This document shows, piece after piece, positions 1,610-20,000 of a stretch of 20,000 nt of DNA. Below the pieces are notes generated by a model, which worked only from the letters and a program-made list of their open reading frames with translations, was not told the origin of the DNA and searched no databases. Source of the stretch: Alloascoidea hylecoeti (lineage: Eukaryota); the NCBI GenBank assembly GCA_001600815.1, contig BCKZ01000006.1, forward strand, positions 594,912 through 614,911, given 5' to 3'. Numbering within the stretch: position 1 is the first letter of the stretch; the number at the start of each line of letters is the position of its first letter. The translations under genes were made by a program, and so were the position numbers.

Positions 1610-1680
1610 GCGTTAGTGGTTTAGCGGTAAAATTCTTCGTTGCCATCGAAGAGCCCCCGGTTCGACTCCGGGCTGACGCA
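1610..1680 (+). tRNA. tRNA-Gly (anticodon GCC), intronless
   Basis: GCGTTAG...CTGACGCA acceptor stem, D-arm TGGTTTAGCGGTAAAA (A box), anticodon stem-loop CTTCG-TTGCCAT-CGAAG, T-arm CCCGG-TTCGACT-CCGGG (B box); 71 nt. Closely resembles yeast tRNA-Gly(GCC). Confidence 0.97.
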
Positions 1681-2040: not shown

Positions 2041-2274
2041 ACGGGGTAGATTTATTTGATGGTACAGCTGGACCCAGATTTTAACTAGCAGACCTTTACT
2101 ATTTGTATATTTGGTATATATTTAGAAAAAAATCACATTTTATTATCAAAATCTTTATTGTCAGTTTTTCGACTTAATACGTAAGAACTATCCAAATAGT
2201 AAACATCTGATAGTTAAAATCTAAGAAAATAAAATATATCGATCTTTTCAAAAGTTTAAAACATCATTACCAAC

Positions 2275-2631
2275 ATGGCAGCACTTGGAAGCGGTAAACA
2301 TACTAAGGCGAGGGCACCTCTCGATCAAGATGTAGACAAATCATCTGTTAAATCTGAAGATAGATCTGTAACTTGGGGAGAAATGCAAGAAATTATGGGA
2401 ATCAGTGTCCAGATTCAAGCCATACATACTATCATAATTGATAAAATTGACTCTATGAACAATCAATTAGGTGAAAAAATTGAGTCAATGAATTCCTCCT
2501 TCACCGAAAGACTAAACAAATTAGAAGGAACATCAAACTCCGGTGCAGCAATATACCACACCAAAAGAAAATGTAAATATTATAAACTGCCACTGAATAT
2601 TCTACAAGGCCTTAAATGGTTTCTAAAATAG
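2275..2631 (+). CDS. Orphan 118-aa ORF with a coiled-coil-like segment; possible Gag-like relic or pseudogene
   Basis: ATG in good context (caacATGg). Heptad-like repeated segment IIDKIDSMNNQL-GEKIESMNSSF-TERLNKLE. The frame stays open for 36 more codons past the TAG (to 2742). No family recognised. Confidence 0.3.
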   Translation: MAALGSGKHTKARAPLDQDVDKSSVKSEDRSVTWGEMQEIMGISVQIQAIHTIIIDKIDSMNNQLGEKIESMNSSFTERLNKLEGTSNSGAAIYHTKRKCKYYKLPLNILQGLKWFLK

Positions 2632-3133
2632 TACATAGTGTTCCATGAAGCCCAAATATTTCGAAAGAGACATAAATATTATCTCTATTCACTCTTTTAC
2701 CATGTGGAAAGCTCACCTATTGCAATCTCTGCCTTGCAATAAACTTTTATAAGGAGATTCCAAATGTGCTCAAATCTTAATACAAGATAATATATGGAAA
2801 TATAAACTAGATATATGAAAACTTAACTTTGAATATATAGGTTACATAAAAATGGAGTTACCAATAAAAAGATGATTCAATATGTGCTTGATGGAGCTAA
2901 AGAGCATAAAAATGTATTGATATTGTACTATAATTATAACCTTCGAATTTCTTCCAGTCAGAATTATGATATAAGTTTATAATGGTATGATTGTAAAGAA
3001 TTCAATTACCGTTATCATAAGTCGAGATTGAGTGTGATTATAATTGTAAAAAGTGTGTAATTAGCCATAGTTCAGATTTTGATGAGAACATTTCCAATTA
3101 CAATTTTTTATTTCCAATCGGTGCTGTTTAGCA

Positions 3134-3325
3134 TTAGCAGGAAGAACAAGAACCACATTTGCAAGCCTTTGGGCAGGAGCAATCTTTTGGATTCTTGCAG
3201 GTTCCAACACAAGGAGGTTGAGTATCCACTGGCTTGGAACAGGAAGAACAAGCATTGCAATTACATGATTTTTCGCAAGTACAACTTTCTGGATTGGTGC
3301 AAGACCCAACACAAGGAGAAACCAT
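3134..3325 (-). CDS. Metallothionein, 63 aa, 16 Cys (copy 1)
   Basis: MVSPCVGSCTNPESCTCEKSCNCNACSSCSKPVDTQPPCVGTCKNPKDCSCPKACKCGSCSSC: 25% Cys in CxC and CxxC motifs, no aromatic residues or His, A at -3 of ATG, TATA box ~130 nt upstream. Confidence 0.9.
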   Translation of the reverse strand: MVSPCVGSCTNPESCTCEKSCNCNACSSCSKPVDTQPPCVGTCKNPKDCSCPKACKCGSCSSC

Positions 3326-3451
3326 TATTAATAAGAATAAAGATGTAGATAGTTATAGTATATTATTGAGAATTTTCAATTGGATATAATCCGAATAATT
3401 TGAATTGATGTGAATTTAGAGGGTCGACATTAGAAGGGGGGAATCGACAAG

Positions 3452-3459
3452 TATTTATA
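3452..3459 (-). promoter_or_regulatory. TATA box of metallothionein copy 1
   Basis: TATAAATA on the minus strand ~130 nt upstream of ATG 3325; mirror of 3723..3730. Confidence 0.5.
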
Positions 3460-3536
3460 TTCTTTGGTTATATATTTAAGCTTGAATTATATCTATGGAA
3501 TTACCAATTCTGCATTAATGCCTATATAACTATTTT

Positions 3537-3645
3537 AGGAAATCGAGGAGTGTTTCCCTTAAGCAGCCAGAAAGTTTATTCTCGAAGCAGAAGTATTGAA
3601 GTCTATACCCTTTCAGGCTGACTGCATGCTCCTGTGTCTTCAATG
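3537..3645. promoter_or_regulatory. 109-bp unique spacer, a shared bidirectional UAS with two outward-facing Ace1/Amt1-like elements and an HSE core
   Basis: CTTTCTGGCTG on minus (3564..3574) and CTTTCAGGCTG on plus (3610..3620) both fit the copper-fist consensus HTHNNGCTG. TTCTCGAA (TTCnnGAA) lies between them at 3579..3586. Confidence 0.6.
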
Positions 3646-3722
3646 AAAATATTTATATAGGCATTAATACAGAATTGGTAATTCCATAGATATAATTCAA
3701 GCTTAAATATATAACCAAAGAA

Positions 3723-3730
3723 TATAAATA
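3723..3730 (+). promoter_or_regulatory. TATA box of metallothionein copy 2
   Basis: TATAAATA ~130 nt upstream of ATG 3857. Confidence 0.5.
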
Positions 3731-3856
3731 CTTGTCGATTCCCCCCTTCTAATGTCGACCCTCTAAATTCACATCAATTCAAATTATTCGGATTATATCC
3801 AATTGAAAATTCTCAATAATATACTATAACTATCTACATCTTTATTCTTATTAATA

Positions 3857-4048
3857 ATGGTTTCTCCTTGTGTTGGGTCTTGCACCAATCCAGAAAGTTG
3901 TACTTGCGAAAAATCATGTAATTGCAATGCTTGTTCTTCCTGTTCCAAGCCAGTGGATACTCAACCTCCTTGTGTTGGAACCTGCAAGAATCCAAAAGAT
4001 TGCTCCTGCCCAAAGGCTTGCAAATGTGGTTCTTGTTCTTCCTGCTAA
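3857..4048 (+). CDS. Metallothionein, 63 aa, 16 Cys (copy 2, identical to copy 1)
   Basis: Same translation as 3134..3325. Start context taataATGg, tandem stops TAA-TGC-TAA, AATAAA at 4070..4075. Confidence 0.9.
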   Translation: MVSPCVGSCTNPESCTCEKSCNCNACSSCSKPVDTQPPCVGTCKNPKDCSCPKACKCGSCSSC

Positions 4049-5065
4049 TGCTAAACAGCACCGATTGGAAATAAAAAATTGTAATTGGAAATGTTCTCAT
4101 CAAAATCTGAACTATGGCTAATTACACACTTTTTACAATTATAATCACACTCAATCTCGACTTATGATAACGGTAATTGAATTCTTTACAATCATACCAT
4201 TATAAACTTATATCATAATTCTGACTGGAAGAAATTCGAAGGTTATAATTATAGTACAATATCAATACATTTTTATGCTCTTTAGCTCCATCAAGCACAT
4301 ATTGAATCATCTTTTTATTGGTAACTCCATTTTTATGTAACCTATATATTCAAATTTAAGTTTTCATATTCCTTTTTATTATGGATGATTTAAACAAGTT
4401 GCAGCTACCTATAATTATAATAACTTAGTGAACCTCCTTTGTGCAAACGTGCTCTTAACTATACCGTAGTTTTTGTCAGGTTATCCCCGTTGACACACTG
4501 AAAACTCTATATTTGTTTTTAATAGAGGGTAGATTTAACAACATTTTCAGACTTCATGTTTTCAATTTCTACCGCAAATTTCAATTCACAGCCGATATTT
4601 CCTCTAATGACTCTGACTGTTGGCTTGATCCACAACATTGTTCTCATTTATTTCTCTTATCCTTTTGGTCTTCCTCTTTTTCTCTTACCCGGACCCCCTT
4701 CTGTTGTTCTTTTGGACATCGTTGCAATGATAGGCCGTAAGTGTCAGTAGTTCATACTGGCCCTCGGAAACACCACAAATCTTGAGCATGAGTTGTTGCC
4801 TTTTAAAGCCTATTAATTTATACACTATCGCGATAATGTGTCATCGGTTACTGAAGCAGCGAAAAAGTATGGACTACATAGAAATTCACTGCAAACTATC
4901 TTTTAAAAAACAACTCATGTTCATTTACAACTATCAACAGGCATAAAGTTTTTATGTGTGGTATAGTATTTTTAATATAGAATAAAAAGCATTTAAAGAC
5001 CGCAAAATTGAAAAAGAGCAAACAATTATGTAACAGCTACTTAAAAAAATAGTATATAAACATTA

Positions 5066-5324: not shown

Positions 5325-6830
5325 TTAATCTGAATTATCTGCAAGATCAATGCCTTTTATAACAGCTTTTTTAGCCCATTGTCTTGATATTATAGAGGCT
5401 TTTAGGAATCTTTTGGATGCATATTTCTTGAAAAAACATTCATGGGTTATTGGTTGTACTAAATAATCCATCATCATTTCACAGACAACAATTATATCTT
5501 CGACATCATAGTCACCTGAATAATGAATAAGATTTGCATCCCATTTACCTTTACCTAAAATTTTTCTTGATAGATACATTGCTGCAGCACAAATTAAAGA
5601 GGGAAACATGCCAATGAATCTATGGTCAACCAAAGAGATCTCGATTAGATACTTACCAAAAGTTCTAGATTGAATATCATAATTATCGGCTTTTGAAATA
5701 CGACGCAAAAAGTTCATTGGATTTGGATAAGATAAATCGAAATGCAATACTTGAAGAACATATCTTTCAGCTTCTAATATTTCTTTTTCAGTAAAACCAT
5801 CTTGACCAGTAATCATAACATAACTCTGTATTGAAGGTGAATATACTTCTTCGTACTTGGCCGATATGAATAACGCAACAACCGCGAGTAATTGTAATCT
5901 ATCGACTTCAACCATTTCTTTTGACATGAAACGATCCAATACATTAATAGTTAAGAACAGCGTTTCAGGTAGTAATCTAAATTTTGCATGAGTATCAACA
6001 AGCCAATCAACCAAAATTGATCTCATCTCAGGCTTAATATCTTTTTGGAATACTAAATAGCTTGGATCTGGAGCAGTTTTCTTTTCAAGAATACTATAAT
6101 ATTCAAATATTTCAGTTACATATTCAGAAGCCATTAATGGATCATCAATGTCTTCTTCGTCAAGATCATCCCAAGCAGGTTTTTCGGGTTTTACAGTTCT
6201 TGCTTTTTTAAGCATTCGGGGTTCTTCTTCCATTATATCATAGATACCATCCTCTTCACTAAATAAAGCTCCCATTGATCTTTTTTTGGTGGTTGATACA
6301 GCGGGGACATTTTCTTTACCTATTGTAGATGATTTACTAATTAGAGCTTTCTCGGATTGTTTTTTATTAGCACGAACATTAGTATTTGATGATAGTTTAT
6401 CTTCAGATATAACTTCTAACTTTTTAGTCCTTTTAACAACTATAGTAGTATTAGAAGATTTTTTTGAAGCGTCTTTTTCCTTGACTTTTAATGAAGAGTC
6501 TCTTTCTTTGACTTTTAATGAAGAATCTTTTTCTTTAACTTTTAATGACGTATGAATCTTTTTTAGGTCATTATTTGCAGATCTGATTCCATTTGTATTA
6601 CTAAGATCACCTAAAGCTTTACGCTGTTTTGTAGCACCATCACCATTGGTGTTTGCAGTTTTTACAGGTAAGGTACCCTTTGACCTCGTAATTCTGGCGT
6701 ATGAATTTTCATCGCGTTGTTTAGTGGCGAGCTTTGTGTCCTAATTGATAGAGAAATCTATGTTAGTATTTGGGGGGAAGACGTGACACAAACATAAAAA
6801 TTAATGAATTGAACTTACGTTATTTCTCAT
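5325..6830 (-). CDS. CLB2: B-type (G2/M) cyclin, CLB1/2-Cdc13-like, 475 aa; exons 6830..6819 and 6740..5325
   Basis: Cyclin box MRSILVDWLV...ETLFLTINVLDRF...KYEE. The frame is open 155 codons upstream of the ORF-track start and contains D-box RKALGDLSN (6597..6623) and a KEN box (GKENVP). Intron 6741..6818: GTAAGT...TACTAAC...TAG. Exon 1 encodes MRNN. The paralogue assignment is tentative. Confidence 0.92.
6468..6548 (-). repeat. 27-bp coding tandem repeat x3 in the cyclin N-terminal region (SLKVKE[K/R]D[S/A])
   Basis: tcattaaaagttaaagaaaaagattct / tcattaaaagtcaaagaaagagactct / tcattaaaagtcaaggaaaaagacgct on the minus strand. Confidence 0.9.
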
Positions 6831-7729: not shown

Positions 7730-9463
7730 TTAAACGGCAGATTGTTCTTTTTCTTTTTCTATATGAGTTTCCTCTGTAATATGTAGATACTGCTCTTCTT
7801 TGTATTCAGCATCAAGAACATTCATTTCTTCTTCAATTAGATTATATTTCTTAAACAAGAACCAAAATACGATTCCAGAAAAGAATGTGGCAACAGAAAG
7901 ACCAGTGTACATCCAAACCATATGTGGATCTTTGGCTCCTGGTGAAATAGCAATACCAATTGCTGAACCAAAGGCATTAGTTAGTAAAAACATTGACATA
8001 ATAAATGATTTCATATTTGCTGGGGCTTTTGTATAAGCATATTCTAACCCTGTAACTGAAGCAAAAATCTCTGATAATGCGATAAAAAGATAAGCTGGGG
8101 CTTGCACAGCAACATGAACTCTGTTTGGAACGCTACCATTTGGTGAAGCAGGACAATTTAATGGTGAATCGTAACAAGGACCAGCGGTATAAATAAGATG
8201 TTGAACGACGGCAGCGTAAGCCATTGCAATAGCACCAAAGAAGAAACCACAAGTGATTCTGGTAATTGGCTTGAACTTAATTCCCATTTTTCTTAAGTAT
8301 GGATAAACGAGTTTATTCAAAATTGGAATAAATATAATAACAACAATTGGATCAATGTTTTGCATAATATCATTTGGAATTCCATGTGTTTCCATTTCAC
8401 CGGCTTGTGATACAAAGTTATTTATCATTTGTCCATAAACAATCCAATAAACTGGATAAAACACAAAAACTTTACAAGCTTTCAATGCTCTTTTAACTTC
8501 TTCGACGTAAAGATCTGTCCATTTAACTGGTGGTTCTCCACTAATTTCACGGACTGTTGGTTTTGCTGCATCAAAGTTACCTTTATTTTTAACACCAATG
8601 AATATAATTCTGAAACAATCTGGAATAACAGATCCCATTGGTGGTTTTATAACATAACGTTTTCTTCCTAATACCAATGCAATAATACCAACGAAAAAGA
8701 AACAGAATGGTAGTAGGTAAGCAGCCCAGAATCCAACATTCATTTCTAATTCAGTTGTTGCTATTGCAGATAATGAACCAGTATTAATACAGAAATAAAA
8801 AACTAAGAAAATGGTCTCAATGGTAGTTGAAGGGTCAACAATAACTCTCTCACCAGACTTTAATGTCTTTAAAAATGGTTTCGTGTTTGTATACTGCTCA
8901 GCAATTAATGGTGACACATTTGATTTAATACCACCAGTACCAAGGCCAATAACAATCATTGCAACAACTAAACCACCAAGTGATGCATTATTTGCAATCG
9001 CAACAGGTAATGAAGTGACAAATAAAATTAAACAACCAACAACGTAAACTAGAGCAAAATAAAAAATTGTTTTATATTTACCCAAGTATGTATCGGCAAT
9101 ATAAGCACCTATAATTGGAGTTACGTAACACCAAAATTGAAAGAAATAAGATAAGGCACTGGTATGGGATTGACCAAGACCCAAGGCGCCCGGCGTACCA
9201 TCAGTTGGCTTATATTGCATATAATTTGTAAAAGGGCCATTAACACCATAATATGTGAATCTTTCACATAATTCAACTACAGCAACTAACCAGACTGCAG
9301 TTGGAAGTTTATCAGCAATACGTCTTAGCGTTGCCATTTCTTCTTCTGTTGGTTCATGTTCATAACTTTCTCTTGATTCAACAGATAAATTTTGATGAAG
9401 TTTATTTTCAGAAATATTCCTAACAGGACTTTCGTTAATATCACTCTCTTGAATTCCTGCCAT
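7730..9463 (-). CDS. PTR2: Proton-dependent di/tripeptide transporter (POT/PTR family), 577 aa
   Basis: ExxERFxYYG motif (ELCERFTYYG), GAYIADTYLGKYKTI, GTGGIKSNVS, FYFCINTGS, LEYAYTKAPANMKS; about 12 hydrophobic segments. Confidence 0.95.
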   Translation of the reverse strand: MAGIQESDINESPVRNISENKLHQNLSVESRESYEHEPTEEEMATLRRIADKLPTAVWLVAVVELCERFTYYGVNGPFTNYMQYKPTDGTPGALGLGQSHTSALSYFFQFWCYVTPIIGAYIADTYLGKYKTIFYFALVYVVGCLILFVTSLPVAIANNASLGGLVVAMIVIGLGTGGIKSNVSPLIAEQYTNTKPFLKTLKSGERVIVDPSTTIETIFLVFYFCINTGSLSAIATTELEMNVGFWAAYLLPFCFFFVGIIALVLGRKRYVIKPPMGSVIPDCFRIIFIGVKNKGNFDAAKPTVREISGEPPVKWTDLYVEEVKRALKACKVFVFYPVYWIVYGQMINNFVSQAGEMETHGIPNDIMQNIDPIVVIIFIPILNKLVYPYLRKMGIKFKPITRITCGFFFGAIAMAYAAVVQHLIYTAGPCYDSPLNCPASPNGSVPNRVHVAVQAPAYLFIALSEIFASVTGLEYAYTKAPANMKSFIMSMFLLTNAFGSAIGIAISPGAKDPHMVWMYTGLSVATFFSGIVFWFLFKKYNLIEEEMNVLDAEYKEEQYLHITEETHIEKEKEQSAV

Positions 9464-12074: not shown

Positions 12075-13740
12075 TTATGGGCGTACGAGTTTCACATCGT
12101 CATAAATTACTATTCGACGAGCTCTAATACTAGGTATAATATCTCCATTTTCCAAATTTTGACTAATTAACCTTTTTTTTCCTTGCTTCATTTTCTTAAG
12201 TTTCGAATGAAAACTCTGTTCTTCAATATCCTTATGATTTTCGTTTTCATTTTCATTACCATTAAACTCCTCTCGTACGCTATCATTGTTATATTCTTCT
12301 TCAGCAGCAACAGGAAAATCGTTCTCATCGTTATCATTCGGTGCATTCAAGCCATAATCACCGTTCGATTCTTCATGAATTAACATATTCTCTTCTTTTT
12401 GATCTTGTTGTTCTTGATGAATCACATCATTCGATTCTATAGCATTTGGTGGATCAGACGGTGAATCTCTATTATCCTTTAGATCATACTCTATATTAAG
12501 TATAGGAGATAAACGATTTATTGGAGAATTCTTATTCAAATCAATCGAAATATCATTGTATTCTTCAAAATCAGAGTTGATAATCTCATTATCATAATTT
12601 TCATCAATATCATCTTTTTGATCATTATTATCATCATAAACTTTAGCTAAATTTGAGTTAATCAAAGTTATATTAGTTCCTGTTGTTTGTGTATCTTTAT
12701 CCTCTTCCTCGAAGATTGATTCTGATAATTCGGCATCGCTTTGATAATTATCAGGAGAAACAGGGTGATTTTCTGTGAACTCATCATTTGTAGATAAAAC
12801 AGTACTAGTAGTAATTGGTGAAACATGGAACATGTCGGTTTCAGCTTCAATTTCATTGTTTCTACTTTTGGTATTTTGAAATTTAAGCTCGATGTCTTCA
12901 TTATTTTCATCTGAAGCATGATTCGATTCAATATCTTGGTCATTTTGATGTCCAATATCATAATCATCTTCAACGCCTATCTCTATATTAGATGCAATAA
13001 ATTTCTCGTTACCTTCTTCGGTAATATCATATTTCGTATGATTTTCATTAGGTGCCACTTTGAATTTACCAATTGGAGATTGAGCAAATGGCATAAGATT
13101 GCTATCTTGATTAAATGGTGATGATGATCCATTACGATTTCTGCAATCAGTAGGAATTATGACATTTTTTAAAATCTTATATTCTAGTTTTTGTTCGATT
13201 TCTTTCATATGATTTTGTTTTCCAAGTAAGTCATAATTATCAGGTAATTCTAGTAAATCATTAGGATTTGTAGGTGTCAATACAGGATTATCAAAAAATG
13301 ATTCCTTTTCATTAAGTTGTTCAGTAACCTTTGAATCATTTAAAGAATCTGTGTCACCTTCATAATTATCATTTTTTAAATGATTATCCTTTACATTTGA
13401 TGATCTGATTTCATCTCGTGATGAATTGATTTTGTCATCTACGGATTGAGAATTATCATGAATAGAATCAGTAGTTGATTCAGATTCAGATTCTGAGTAT
13501 GATTCATTATCAGATACGTTTAATGAAAATTTACCACCCGTATTTTCTAATAGATCACCATAATCACCATCATCGTTTGAGTTAACAATTTTATCAATAG
13601 TGTCTAAATCCTTTTCACCTTTTGCGACTAGTTACAAAATAAAAATAGTTAGTTCATTGAATAAAATCATAGTAAAAGAAATTTTTGACTTACTTTCAAA
13701 AATTAAGGTATCTGTATCAAAATCATATTTGTCATCCGGT

Positions 13741-13772
<32 letters not shown>

Positions 13773-15659
13773 CTCCTCCTCAATGTCCCCTACATCTTCA
13801 ATCACAGAAATTGCCGAATTATTTTGTTCTTTCACCGAAATCCTAGCTGATCTTCTTGCACTTCTCTTGTTATTGTAGATATCAGATATTGGACTATTTG
13901 CAGGTCCTGATGGTTTATAATCATCAAAATCGGAATCAAGTTCAAAATCGAAGTGTTGATGAGACCTTGTCTTTTTCTCTTTAGATTCTGTATTTACATC
14001 GTCGTCAACACGATTTTTGTTAGGTTTTTCCTTTTTAGGGGTTGTCTTTTCCCTTGTGTTATTAAATATTGATGATCGCCTACGACTTGGTGTTAAATTT
14101 GAAGTTAAATGTGGCTTTGGATTTAATGATGCTACACGTTTCCTGTTATATTGAGGAACTTTTGAACGTGATATTATAGGTAAGGCTGACTTAGCTTGTA
14201 CTCCCGATCTGACTCTTTCTCTGGGAGATGAGTTTGAGATTGAACGACATCGAGCTGTATGCGATTTTGTTATCTCGTCTGATACATGCAATTGACTATT
14301 ATTAGTACGTATGCTGTTTGTTTTTCGTTTCTTGTTGGGTGGCACTGATTGATTATTATTATTATCGTGTTTTGTATTCGTAAAACTATGGGGTGTATAC
14401 TTTGTGACATCTACGCCAATAATTTCAATATCACTATCATTGCCATACTTTGCCTCCGGCTTTTTAATTGTAGTCGATATTGATCTTCGCCATTGTCCAG
14501 GTCGTATACTTGGTACTGGTGTAGCTTTTGTTATTTTTGATTTTGAAATTGATTTTGAAGTTGGTCTTTGTTTTAGTTTTGAGCTTGGAAATTTTATTTT
14601 CAAGTTCGATTTTTTTGGAGTTAGAATATCTTGGGGAGCTAAAACATTGCCCCATACTCCTAGCAGTTGTTTTATCAAGAAAGGGTGACGTAAAGCAGAT
14701 TCCGGACTTGCCCTTAAAACATTATTTGGATGTAAAATAAATTTAAAGAAATCTTTTGCTAAATTTATATCATCAATCTCTTTTGTTGTGTAGTGAGGAA
14801 CACGCGGTGGATCAGGAGTTGTTTTGAATATTTCCTCTAATAAGAAGAAATCCGAGAGTTCATCATTGGGTGGTAGAATCTTTTTCTCATGTTTCCATTT
14901 TAAACCACGGCCTCTATAGCAATCTAAAGAACCAAACATTTTTGCAATTTTAATAATTGCCTCAGATTCATCTTTTCCAGCTAATAATTTCCAATCTGAG
15001 TCTAATTCTATATCAAGTTCTGAGTTTTCATTATAAGTTGATTTAATATACAGTTCCAATAGAACAATACCAACACTCCAAACATCGATATTTTCATTAA
15101 AGCTTTTATCACCCATAAATATTTCAGGGGCTCTATAAGCAATAGTCTGTATCTCAAAATCATCATGATATAGATTGAAGCTTTCGACTTTCACTGCATT
15201 ACTAAAATCAATTAATTTAATACCAAATTTTGAGTCCTGACGCCGTAGGATATTTTCTGGTTTTATGTCACAATGTACCCATCCGATATTGTGGAGTTCC
15301 AAAAGACCCTGAAATAATTGAGTAGCATACTTTGCTAAAGTTTTCAATCTTTTTGCAACCGTATTACCAGGGATAATCAAAGGTCTGGAAGTATCTAATA
15401 ATTCATAAACAATATTGATGGATTCTTCATCTTGAAAAAAATCCAAAGGGTGTAGTAAATAATCCGAAGCGATTAAAGTATTTCTCGTTTTATTGACGAA
15501 ACTTACTTCTTGTCTTCCAATATCCTGATATCGCTTTTTGATACTTTTTATGGCGACCATTTGATTTTGAACACGGTCTTCAGCCAAATAAGTGACGGCG
15601 AAAGCTCCTGAACCGAGAGCCTCACGGAAATAGTAATTCCCAGATTGCCTACCTCCCAT
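12075..15659 (-). CDS. Atypical CMGC (DYRK/HIPK-like) protein kinase with a long basic then acidic low-complexity tail, ~1172 aa; exons 15659..13694 and 13627..12075
   Basis: LGSGAFAVT, VAIK, alphaC Glu, HCDIKPENIL, DFS, IQTIAYRAPE, DVWSVG, ALRHPF. Intron 13628..13693 (GTAAGT...AACTAAC...TAG, 66 nt) joins the 675-aa and 401-aa ORFs in frame, with an open reading frame through 13627..13281. Confidence 0.85.
13740..13781 (-). repeat. (GAR)14 trinucleotide run encoding poly-Glu in the kinase tail
   Basis: 14 consecutive GAG/GAA codons. Confidence 0.9.
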
Positions 15660-16884: not shown

Positions 16885-18720
16885 ATGTCAGATTCAACAG
16901 GGCCGGACAACTTGGAAGGAGCCTCTTTATCTTTCAGTATTCCAGGCGTCCTGGATAACAGCACATGGTCCTCCTTGTCCTTCAAGGAAAAGTATATCCA
17001 CATCACGCAAACACCTCCAAGACAAGTGGCATTTTTTGAAGAACACCTTCCAATATTTATAATATTTACACTTCCATCAACTTATTCAACAAATGACACT
17101 AAATTTGATTCTTGGATGAAAAATATAGAGGATTCTACAGTTTCACTAGATCATTTAATCGTCGGAAAGCAACCTCTTCCTCTTCGTCAAAAAGATCCTT
17201 CAAATTCTAATGAACATACACGCATATTACATTCTGAGACACTGGATTGTAAGGGATTATTGGGCTCCATGATAGATGATAAAGACGGCTCATTAGTAGT
17301 AATATGGTTTTCTAATATTGAAATTTTATACCCCAGAACACGGCTGGAAAATCCAAATATAGTTTTAACAACACATATTACTTTCCCAATACACTCAATA
17401 GAAAAAGACTTAAGCTTACAATTGGCAGATATATCATCAGATCATGAATCATTCTTGGAAGAGTTTGTGCCTGCTTATAGTAAAAATATATTGGCTCCAT
17501 TAAGTGAGGGACTTGATCAAGAGCCTTCCGATTCCTCTGCATTTATGCCTGCTTCTCGTCTAACTGGTAAAAGATATATTTCCTATCAACAAGAACTTGA
17601 GCAAAGTGTTACATCAAAACTTAAACAGGCCCAAGTTCAGAGGGAAAGCGATGATGCCAAATCAAATCTTACTACAAGTATTAGTTTACCTGTTGTTCCA
17701 ATCCTTAGTATGAAATTAAGATCAACAAAAGCTGCAGGTATAAATGATACATTAATATCAACTCTTGATATAGAGCCTTCTGACTTATTTATAATACATA
17801 ATTTGAAAGTTATAGTCAAATCTATCAATGTCAACTTAATTGGTGGCGATGTTAAACAATTTAGTCATTCTCAATTACCTATCTCTATAGGTACAGGTGA
17901 TGCTGCCTCATTTTTATATTATTTATCAAATAATGATTTTTTACCACAACAACTTTCTTCCAATTCTATTAGTGAAGAATACAATTCTCGGAATCGTCCG
18001 GTAAAGATTAAAGTCGATGTAATTCCTTTAATATCAGCTGAAAATGAAAATGAATTCGAAAATGATAGCAGTTTAAATTCCCTAGGTCCCACCGTATCAA
18101 TAAGTTGGTCAACAACAACTGATTTTGGTATAATTGCACCTCCAACAAATTCATCATTAAAAACAAGTAGTCATAGACATTCAAATCCAAATGTGCCACC
18201 ACGATTAGCATCTAGTTTATCAATTTTAAAACATTTAAAAAGTTCAATGTCATCATTAACTGTTAATGTACCAAGATCATCATCAACTAAAAATGTTTTA
18301 ACAAAATTAGCATTATCTTTTTCTGGTACAACAACTGTTAAAATTGGTGAAACTTTTAAATGGAAAATCTTTGCAATTAATAAATTAAACTCAGCAAGAA
18401 AATTATCTTTATATATTCAACCAAAAGATCAATTTGAAAAAATCTTACCAAAAATTACTGAATCAAATCTTCCTGTAATAGATAACCTTATGTTAAAAAA
18501 TATCTATAAAAATTCTTCATTACCATTACCGGGTATCATATGTCTAGGAAATGATATTAGAATCGGTCCATTAGGCCCGTTTTCAAGTTATGAAACTGAA
18601 ATTACTTTATTAGCTCTCAATGTGGGTACTTTTTCTTTAGAAGGTGTTAGAGTTATAGACCTCGCAAGTGGTGATAGTTTTGATTGTGGGAGATTATTAG
18701 AAGTTGTAGTGAGAGATTGA
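16885..18720 (+). CDS. TRS65: TRAPPII complex subunit Trs65 (Kre11)-like, 611 aa
   Basis: The C-terminal region F-x-W-x-I-F-A-I-N and ICLGNDIRIGPL..SYETEITLLAL..G..SLEGVRVIDL..GDSFDCGRLLEVVV resembles fungal Trs65. Single long ORF. Confidence 0.8.
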   Translation: MSDSTGPDNLEGASLSFSIPGVLDNSTWSSLSFKEKYIHITQTPPRQVAFFEEHLPIFIIFTLPSTYSTNDTKFDSWMKNIEDSTVSLDHLIVGKQPLPLRQKDPSNSNEHTRILHSETLDCKGLLGSMIDDKDGSLVVIWFSNIEILYPRTRLENPNIVLTTHITFPIHSIEKDLSLQLADISSDHESFLEEFVPAYSKNILAPLSEGLDQEPSDSSAFMPASRLTGKRYISYQQELEQSVTSKLKQAQVQRESDDAKSNLTTSISLPVVPILSMKLRSTKAAGINDTLISTLDIEPSDLFIIHNLKVIVKSINVNLIGGDVKQFSHSQLPISIGTGDAASFLYYLSNNDFLPQQLSSNSISEEYNSRNRPVKIKVDVIPLISAENENEFENDSSLNSLGPTVSISWSTTTDFGIIAPPTNSSLKTSSHRHSNPNVPPRLASSLSILKHLKSSMSSLTVNVPRSSSTKNVLTKLALSFSGTTTVKIGETFKWKIFAINKLNSARKLSLYIQPKDQFEKILPKITESNLPVIDNLMLKNIYKNSSLPLPGIICLGNDIRIGPLGPFSSYETEITLLALNVGTFSLEGVRVIDLASGDSFDCGRLLEVVVRD

Positions 18721-19552: not shown

Positions 19553-20000
19553 TTATAAAAGATAAATGAATGCAACTAAACCAAAAAGGACACCAGAAGC
19601 AGTGTTCTTAGATCCTGCACCTGCATATGTTGGAACAGCAGCGAGACTTGGGGTAGCTGTAGAAGAAAGAACAGATGTTATAGCTGTAGCTTGACATTTA
19701 CTGCTAGTACATTCTACCGTAACACTTGTTGTTGAAGCTTCAGTAATAGCTGCAATTGAAGTCGAAGTTGCAACAGAAGCTTCTGGAGTAACTGTAGTGG
19801 GTTGTGCTACTGCTTCAATAGAAGTAGGAGTTGTTGGTGCAACTGAAACAGCAACTGATGTAGTACTAACAGGTGTAGCGACTGTAGTGGATTGTGCTAC
19901 TGCTTCAACAGAAGTAGGAGTTGTGGCAACAGTAACTGGTGTCTCAACTTCTGGAGTAGAAACAATAGTAGTAGCTGGAACTGTAACTACAGAACTGACG
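19553..20000 (-). CDS. 3' part of a Ser/Thr/Val/Ala-rich GPI-anchored cell-wall protein / flocculin-like adhesin (partial, 5' end outside window)
   Basis: Open frame from 19999: VSSVVTVPATT...TTSVTVECTSSKC...VPTYAGAGSKNTASGVLFGLVAFIYLL*. Flocculin-type TVxCxxxxC motif and a GPI signal (small residues, then a hydrophobic tail). Absent from the ORF track because no start codon lies in the window. Confidence 0.88.
   Translation of the reverse strand, partial: VSSVVTVPATTIVSTPEVETPVTVATTPTSVEAVAQSTTVATPVSTTSVAVSVAPTTPTSIEAVAQPTTVTPEASVATSTSIAAITEASTTSVTVECTSSKCQATAITSVLSSTATPSLAAVPTYAGAGSKNTASGVLFGLVAFIYLL
19791..19924 (-). repeat. 44-bp coding direct repeat x2 (90-bp period) in the wall protein: TTPTS[V/I]EAVAQ[S/P]TTV
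   Basis: 19791..19834 vs 19881..19924, 2 mismatches. Confidence 0.9.

Follow-up and report, generated by a model that had tools for sequence, protein, structure and literature searches.

Extra copies of metallothionein genes are a classic route to metal tolerance, and in most cases they are laid out as tandem arrays. A stretch of 20,000 nucleotides (nt) from contig BCKZ01000006.1 of the yeast Alloascoidea hylecoeti (the window, whose own positions are used as coordinates throughout) raises the question of whether the same end may be reached through a different arrangement, because it contains a 1.56-kb near-perfect palindrome from which two identical metallothionein-like genes are read outwards. 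Is this palindrome a real chromosomal structure, what do its genes encode and how might they be controlled, and what would have kept its two arms alike? The palindrome turns out to be real, an inverted duplication in the chromosome of a budding yeast of low GC content (32% over the window). We think it reasonably probable that it serves as a two-copy dosage module that is stable, probably co-regulated and probably kept homogeneous by conversion between its arms.

A repeat search of the window returned a single long inverted pair, 2800-3536 and 3646-4382, 99% complementary and with 109 nt between its members. Base-by-base comparison about the symmetry centre placed the left arm (minus strand) at 2813-3536 and the right arm (plus strand), of which the left is the reverse complement, at 3646-4369. 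Each arm is 724 nt long, and the two are related with no indels and with three mismatches, at 2827/4355, 3513/3669 and 3530/3652, which amounts to a divergence of 0.41% (3/724) around a spacer of 109 nt (3537-3645). The arms, spacer, mismatches and lack of indels claimed in the original prediction were in this way recovered to the base. An inverted match of 724 nt greatly exceeds what chance would give: outside the palindrome, the next best pair is 57 nt long at 77%, and the other inverted pairs of the search (I2 and I3) correspond to an internal repeat in the coding sequence (CDS) of the palindrome genes. The symmetry ends abruptly outside 2813 and 4369, with no residual similarity in the 400 nt beyond each outer arm end, where the observed local score was reached by 179 of 200 shuffles. 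Global self-alignment of the spacer likewise detected no overall self-symmetry at 3537-3645 (score reached by 209 of 500 shuffles); the spacer was considered as a decayed palindrome, and this was rejected, its self-alignment being no better than that of shuffles.

In each arm, 211 nt precede the ATG of a 192-nt CDS, whose stop is followed by 321 nt, and the two ATGs are 531 nt apart. The CDSs, at 3134-3325 (minus strand, left gene) and 3857-4048 (plus strand, right gene), each encode 63 amino acids (aa) plus a stop. The claim of an identical divergent gene pair was borne out, as the two open reading frames (ORFs) lie on opposite strands with no mismatch within the CDS. That each arm should hold a full transcription unit is plausible from the motif scan, which places a TATA box, the CDS and 3' DNA inside each of them.

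Near-perfect palindromes are also a known artefact of assemblers and long reads, and a fold-back or chimera created during assembly would mean that only a single gene copy exists. The stretch was found in four public runs, none of them an RNA run, representing three samples and three studies, whose k = 31 Logan contigs were compared with positions 2200-5000. Runs X1 and X2 derive from one sample, possibly the source of the window; X4 is labelled as the same organism and belongs to a separate sample and study, and X3 stems from a wood-decay metagenome. The left-flank contig stops at 2857 in each of the four runs, 30 nt past the mismatch at 2827, and the right-flank contig begins at 4325, 30 nt before the mismatch at 4355, such that both unique flanks join the identical outer arm end across the 2827/4355 mismatch. 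The arm interior collapses into shared contigs of 526 nt (2828-3353 = 3829-4354) and 185 nt (3328-3512 = 3670-3854). At the centre, a 217-nt unitig (3483-3699) reads from left arm through spacer to right arm with no differences in X1 and X3; the same path is split into two overlapping pieces in X2 and is included in a contig covering 3491-3854 in X4. Both alleles of the inner mismatches are present on the spacer unitig, at about single depth.

Sequencing depth followed the same pattern. In X1 it was 58.2-59.5 for the flanks, 62.7 for the spacer and 129.3-132.6 for the arms, with corresponding values of 20.2-25.9, 21.4-26.4 and 37.5-46.6 in X2 and of 9.3-9.5, 5.8 and 16.1-17.9 in X3. In X4 the flanks were at 5.8-9.3, the contig 3491-3854, which includes the spacer, at 5.8 and the arm at 12. 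The ratio of arm to flank was therefore roughly twofold across the four runs (1.3-2.3x). Two unique flanks on one arm end, a spacer flanked by arm on either side and a doubled depth together imply a true two-copy inverted repeat, and the palindrome is present in this two-copy state in three samples. The fold-back explanation can draw on the fact that no individual contig covers the whole palindrome, but the flanks that it would have to account for are two distinct unique sequences bearing genes, and the graph is identical in an independent isolate run and in the wood-decay metagenome. The read-depth check and the artefact test put forward with the original prediction hence speak for two inverted copies, which the contig graph and the approximately twofold arm depth require, and we regard a fold-back as highly improbable.

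The collapsed arm contigs break at 3829-3854, just 5' of the ATG, in all four runs, and both pieces have about twofold depth in X1 to X3. This break suggests a k-mer common to another locus, or an unexplained branch of the graph.

The product of the two genes is a protein of 63 aa with 16 Cys (25%), 11 Ser, 7 Pro and 6 Lys, and without Phe, Trp, Tyr or His. It is built from two 27-aa Cys-rich halves, residues 3-29 and 37-63, each with the spacing C-x3-C-x5-C-x-C-x3-C-x-C-x2-C-x2-C. The halves are invariant in 16 of 27 columns, among them all eight Cys, at a DNA identity of 72% (repeat families D1/D2), and four of the eight Cys columns use synonymous codon differences between the halves. Preservation of Cys through synonymous codon changes is the pattern expected of selection on the protein and not of a chance ORF. 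CTG codons are absent from the CDS, the reading of which is therefore independent of the CUG usage of the yeast. The protein starts with MVSPCVGSC, and no hydrophobic start resembling a signal peptide is present. Metallothioneins are in general small (<10 kDa) and very rich in Cys, lack aromatic residues and His, and carry C-x-C and C-x-x-C motifs in repeated domains. The 63-aa ORF displays every one of these hallmarks, in agreement with its original designation as a metallothionein CDS; by composition it looks like a two-domain metallothionein-like protein that is assigned to no curated family.

Searches for relatives were negative. Pfam at E values up to 10 returned no metallothionein family, the sole match being a chance EGF-like one (E 0.036); there were no matches to the 63-aa protein in NCBIfam, none in the PDB at E up to 10 with either the protein or a half-domain profile as query, and none at E up to 0.001 with phmmer against 1.84 billion representative proteins. 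A word-indexed protein collection yielded no candidate, a blank that says little, as the small ORF of the window itself is evidently missing there. A peptide-pattern scan of JGI metagenomes gave 197 pattern matches, with 0 confirmed by tblastn, and in a metagenome scan with a degenerate DNA pattern for C-V-G-x-C-x-N-P-x-x-C-x-C all 17 loci found (17/17) were chance occurrences lacking a Cys-rich ORF. In a language-model Atlas the nearest named clusters were the metallothioneins PF02068, PF02067 and PF00131, at scores of 0.80-0.82 that serve as a lead only; shuffled sequences attain this range a third of the time.

These blank searches, together with Atlas scores within the reach of shuffled sequences, would also suit an ORF that is no metallothionein, that is, one encoding a different small product rich in Cys, such as a disulfide-rich peptide, or one that is untranslated. 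Metallothionein families are known to be mutually unalignable, however, and this alternative has to contend with a non-hydrophobic start, a lack of aromatic residues and His, a C-x-C/C-x-x-C spacing duplicated in two halves with its Cys kept through synonymous changes, and a TATA box and an A-rich 3' region belonging to the ORF itself. We consider it improbable.

Antisense to each CDS an ORF of 88 aa is open (3082-3348, plus strand; 3834-4100, minus strand), which is longer than the 63-aa CDS. It might be mis-called by gene finders, and this could explain the absence of the 63-aa protein from the collections.

How might such a pair of genes be controlled? The spacer at 3537-3645 is unique and, at 44% GC, stands out from the upstream (25%) and downstream (27%) non-coding parts of the arms; it is presumed to be the common upstream control region. 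A putative TATAAATA box was located by motif scan 134 nt 5' of each ATG, at 3452-3459 (minus strand) for the left gene and at 3723-3730 (plus strand) for the right gene. Among other promoter motifs scanned, all in their generally known forms, the Mac1 CuRE (TTTGCKCR) and the MTF-1 MRE (TGCRCNC) had no match in the 531-nt intergenic region, and the STRE (AGGGG), GAANNTTC and TTAVTAA each occurred there once per arm.

The only clear internal symmetry of the spacer is one mirrored 11-mer, CTTTC(A/T)GGCTG. Its two copies are predicted Cup2/Ace1-like elements: CTTTCTGGCTG, at 3564-3574 on the minus strand, faces the left gene at 249 nt from its ATG, and CTTTCAGGCTG, at 3610-3620 on the plus strand, faces the right gene at 247 nt. 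They also account for the only two GCTG cores of the intergenic region. Of 2000 shuffled spacers, 53 held an inverted pair of 11-mers with one mismatch or none, and 6 held such a pair in near-symmetric placement. Positions 3612-3621 (plus strand) match HTHNNGCTGD, the Cup2/Ace1 consensus given in PMC5234253. The proposal that one upstream activating sequence with a single sensor site drives both copies did not hold up in that form, given two mirrored sites, one toward each gene and at near-equal distance. With one 11-mer toward each gene, each copy seems to own a separate site, and we infer that each gene has its own candidate copper-factor site in the central region.

The best explanation of the locus would then be as follows. 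Two identical genes for a two-domain, 16-Cys metallothionein-like protein would be transcribed away from each other, each from its own TATA box inside the arm and under its own Cup2/Ace1-type element in the spacer. Their likely function would be a doubled, co-regulated metallothionein output that buffers copper or another soft metal. Intrachromosomal arm-to-arm gene conversion has probably homogenised the arms, and the 109-nt asymmetric spacer would keep the repeat outside the range prone to hairpins and cruciforms, hence its persistence. The role as a metallothionein, a transcription that responds to metal by way of the mirrored sites and the conversion between the arms are inferences.

The case for conversion begins with the positions of the mismatches. 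They lie 14, 23 and 6 nt from the nearest arm end, all within 24 nt, and leave 685 interior nt of the arm identical, a distribution with P ~3e-4 if mismatches fell uniformly (post hoc test). The locus also displays what is expected of a gene-conversion palindrome, with inverted arms that are >99% identical, a unique spacer and two real copies. Comparison of strains is suggestive in the same direction. Relative to the window, X3 and X4 carry differences at three sites of the approximately 1330 nt of unique flank (2291, 2402 and 4751). In both of these runs the arm site 3052/4130 bears a changed letter, on a collapsed contig of about twofold depth, and the arm site 3809 is changed as well, the contig that bears it having twofold depth in X3 and single depth in X4. 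It thus seems that one arm site or more has changed jointly in the two arms of X3 and X4. Because three samples that differ at flank sites share the palindrome together with its boundary mismatches, it predates the split of the strains. It is probable that the arms stay identical through intrachromosomal gene conversion between the two.

A young, neutral inverted duplication is a serious rival to this account. It would have arisen in one recent template-switch or fold-back event and would involve neither ongoing conversion nor a selected benefit of dosage. Error-prone replicative copy-number mechanisms leave mismatches next to their junctions, and junction-adjacent mismatches are what such a duplication would be expected to show; the palindrome is sharply bounded on the outside, where no decayed symmetry follows, and the 0.41% divergence of the arms is of the same order as the divergence of the flanks between strains (the three sites in approximately 1330 nt that separate the window from X3 and X4). 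A recent origin fits less well with a palindrome and boundary mismatches older than the strain split, with 685 interior nt free of arm differences although two interior arm sites vary between strains, and with the lack of visible microhomology at the arm/spacer junctions. None of these points is decisive, and on balance we hold a young neutral duplication to be somewhat unlikely.

An extension in the opposite direction is that the palindrome is an old miniature one, with 724-nt arms kept by conversion and innermost DNA that has diverged past recognition except for one mirrored copper-factor site per gene. We regard this version as doubtful.

Returning to the stable, co-regulated and converted two-copy module, several observations weigh against it. 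No homologue of the protein could be detected and no metallothionein profile matches it, its label resting on composition and Cys spacing. Of the two candidate copper-factor sites, the minus-strand 11-mer at 3564-3574 fails HTHNNGCTGD, at the last position only; the other published form, TC(T)4-6GCTG, fits neither 11-mer, and the window shows no enrichment of HTHNNGCTGD (14 matches, with 12.7 expected and 14 reached by 87 of 200 shuffles). The joint change of both arms in X3 and X4 is only suggestive, as Logan contigs pop bubbles and a change in one arm could show as a single collapsed contig. The mismatches near the repeat ends could be scars of an error-prone duplication and not a mark of conversion. 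Lastly, k = 31 contigs do not fix how the spacer is oriented between the flanks, and a flip of the spacer mediated by the arms is invisible in them.

Can a repeat of this shape persist in a yeast genome? The original prediction took long inverted repeats with short spacers to be normally unstable in yeast, and this was overstated. In Saccharomyces cerevisiae, lengthening the spacer of an inverted repeat from 12 to 100 bp lowered repeat-induced recombination 300-fold, and lengthening it from 12 to 200 bp reduced gross rearrangements about 20-fold (PMC10164571). Hairpin attack by MRX/Sae2 and fork stalling are described, in the same organism, for spacers <9 bp (PMC8053094). Given this steep effect of spacer length, an asymmetric spacer of 109 nt places the repeat in a tolerated, though not inert, range, and its persistence in three samples agrees with that range.

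The closest functional parallel is CUP1 of S. cerevisiae, which is under Cup2/Ace1 control and whose copies form head-to-tail tandem arrays of variable number. The protein encoded by CUP1 is likewise small and Cys-rich; it binds copper, and extra gene copies raise its dosage. Its tandem arrays differ from the arrangement here, in which exactly two copies stand head to head in a palindrome; the proteins are unalignable, and regulation at the present locus is predicted from sequence. Upstream sites with a GCTG core of the Cup2 type are a further likeness (consensus from PMC5234253, as above).

In architecture, the locus is most readily compared with the palindromes of mammalian sex chromosomes. 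For P1-P8 of the human Y and for palindromes of the primate and mouse X, an arm identity of >99% is attributed to arm-to-arm conversion (PMC8600007, PMC8327919 and PMC8981503). Near-identical inverted arms that carry gene copies around a unique spacer are common to both; the mammalian arms are >10 kb, in contrast to 724 nt in this yeast, where conversion is deduced from mismatches and contigs. Among yeasts, Candida albicans has natural inverted repeats that contain ORFs, one of about 3.2 kb at 99.5% (Todd et al. 2019; PMC6591007). As at the present locus, these repeats are highly identical and hold whole ORFs with intergenic DNA, but the cited examples are kilobases apart (~11.3 kb) and were studied as breakpoints of rearrangements, whereas here the spacer is 109 nt and the promoter region is presumably shared. 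Engineered quasi-palindromes of S. cerevisiae from the Lobachev laboratory come close in size, at 0.3-2.7 kb with short spacers, and include divergently transcribed URA3 or HIS4 repeats (PMC8053094); they differ in being fragile at spacers of 0-12 bp, with a 20- to 300-fold drop in recombination and gross rearrangements at 100-200 bp, the milder range, in which the natural repeat falls (PMC10164571). In summary, the function may resemble a dosage increase of the CUP1 type, and the architecture resembles a miniature gene-conversion palindrome.

Other comparisons are more distant. The original prediction mentions divergent metallothionein pairs reported in Yarrowia, reportedly with a bidirectional promoter; no text describing this arrangement turned up in the papers searched. 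Yarrowia lipolytica is similar in being a yeast outside the Saccharomycetaceae that has metallothionein genes and a copper-responsive factor, Crf1 (Garcia et al. 2002, as cited in PMC5447758), and it differs in that no Pfam metallothionein family matched the protein of the window. MTT1/MTT3 of Tetrahymena were considered as a parallel and rejected, these genes being adjacent in the same orientation (PMC1808422). No published palindromic metallothionein pair in a yeast was found in open-access text.

The surroundings of the palindrome are those of an ordinary chromosomal region. To its left, at a distance of about 1.1 kb, is a tRNA-Gly (GCC) gene at 1610-1680 (plus strand; ARAGORN and Rfam, 59 bits). 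To its right, the ORF annotation of the window lists a cyclin (5325-6275, minus strand), a PTR2 peptide transporter (7730-9463, minus strand), a protein kinase (13632-15659, minus strand) and a Trs65-like protein (16885-18720, plus strand). The PTR2 protein shares at most about 70% identity with any other entry of the protein collection; its best named matches, at 66-71%, are from Sugiyamaella, Dipodascopsis, Magnusiomyces, Nadsonia and Geotrichum, which are early-branching budding yeasts, and the occurrence of the stretch in a wood-decay metagenome fits a wood-associated yeast.

A tRNA gene and fragments of dispersed repeats close by, together with long terminal inverted repeats around a short loop, could recall a foldback-type mobile element that carries the gene by chance. 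The arms have about twice the flank depth, though, which indicates that the genome has exactly two copies of the arm; by eye, no target-site duplication can be seen at 2812/2813 and 4369/4370, and no transposase is present among the ORFs of the window. A foldback-type element is, in our judgement, the least credible of the explanations considered.

Within 2466-2681, the stretches 2466-2535, 2590-2640 and 2601-2637 have counterparts that are about 90-95% alike on other contigs of the same genome in the four runs, with unrelated flanks. They are fragments of a dispersed repeat, possibly a remnant of a long terminal repeat (LTR) or transposon near the tRNA gene. A 118-aa ORF at 2275-2631, with no Pfam match, overlaps this region, and between the repeat fragments and the tRNA gene there is a 57-nt inverted repeat (2076-2222, 77% complementary, 33-nt gap). 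Elsewhere, three tandem 27-nt units, 83-86% alike, lie at 6459-6548, just 5' of the annotated ATG of the cyclin, and could either be a repeat of the promoter or encode a 9-aa repeat within an N-terminal extension. Near the end of the window, two 51-nt copies (19784-19924; 90% alike, 90 nt apart) fall within an open-ended ORF at 19553-19999 (minus strand) that looks like a repeat-containing protein and has no Pfam match.

For the biology of metal tolerance, the locus presents an unusual layout for a familiar strategy, that of extra copies of a metal-protection gene. If our account is true, the locus would represent a different architecture that serves the same end, a two-copy palindrome of natural origin whose control region is shared and which is stable from isolate to isolate and in an environmental sample, and its protein would add an unclassified type to the fungal metallothioneins. 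The palindrome also offers a small and tractable natural case for asking how long inverted repeats with short spacers persist in a yeast genome, and whether the arm-to-arm conversion described for mammalian sex chromosomes works at the scale of a single gene. Were the doubtful version of an old miniature palindrome to be true, this would be a yeast-scale counterpart of the ampliconic palindromes of sex chromosomes, and it could be a substrate for hairpin- or origin-dependent inverted amplification of a metal-resistance gene under copper stress. No major picture is altered by the finding, whose value is that of a neat, testable example.

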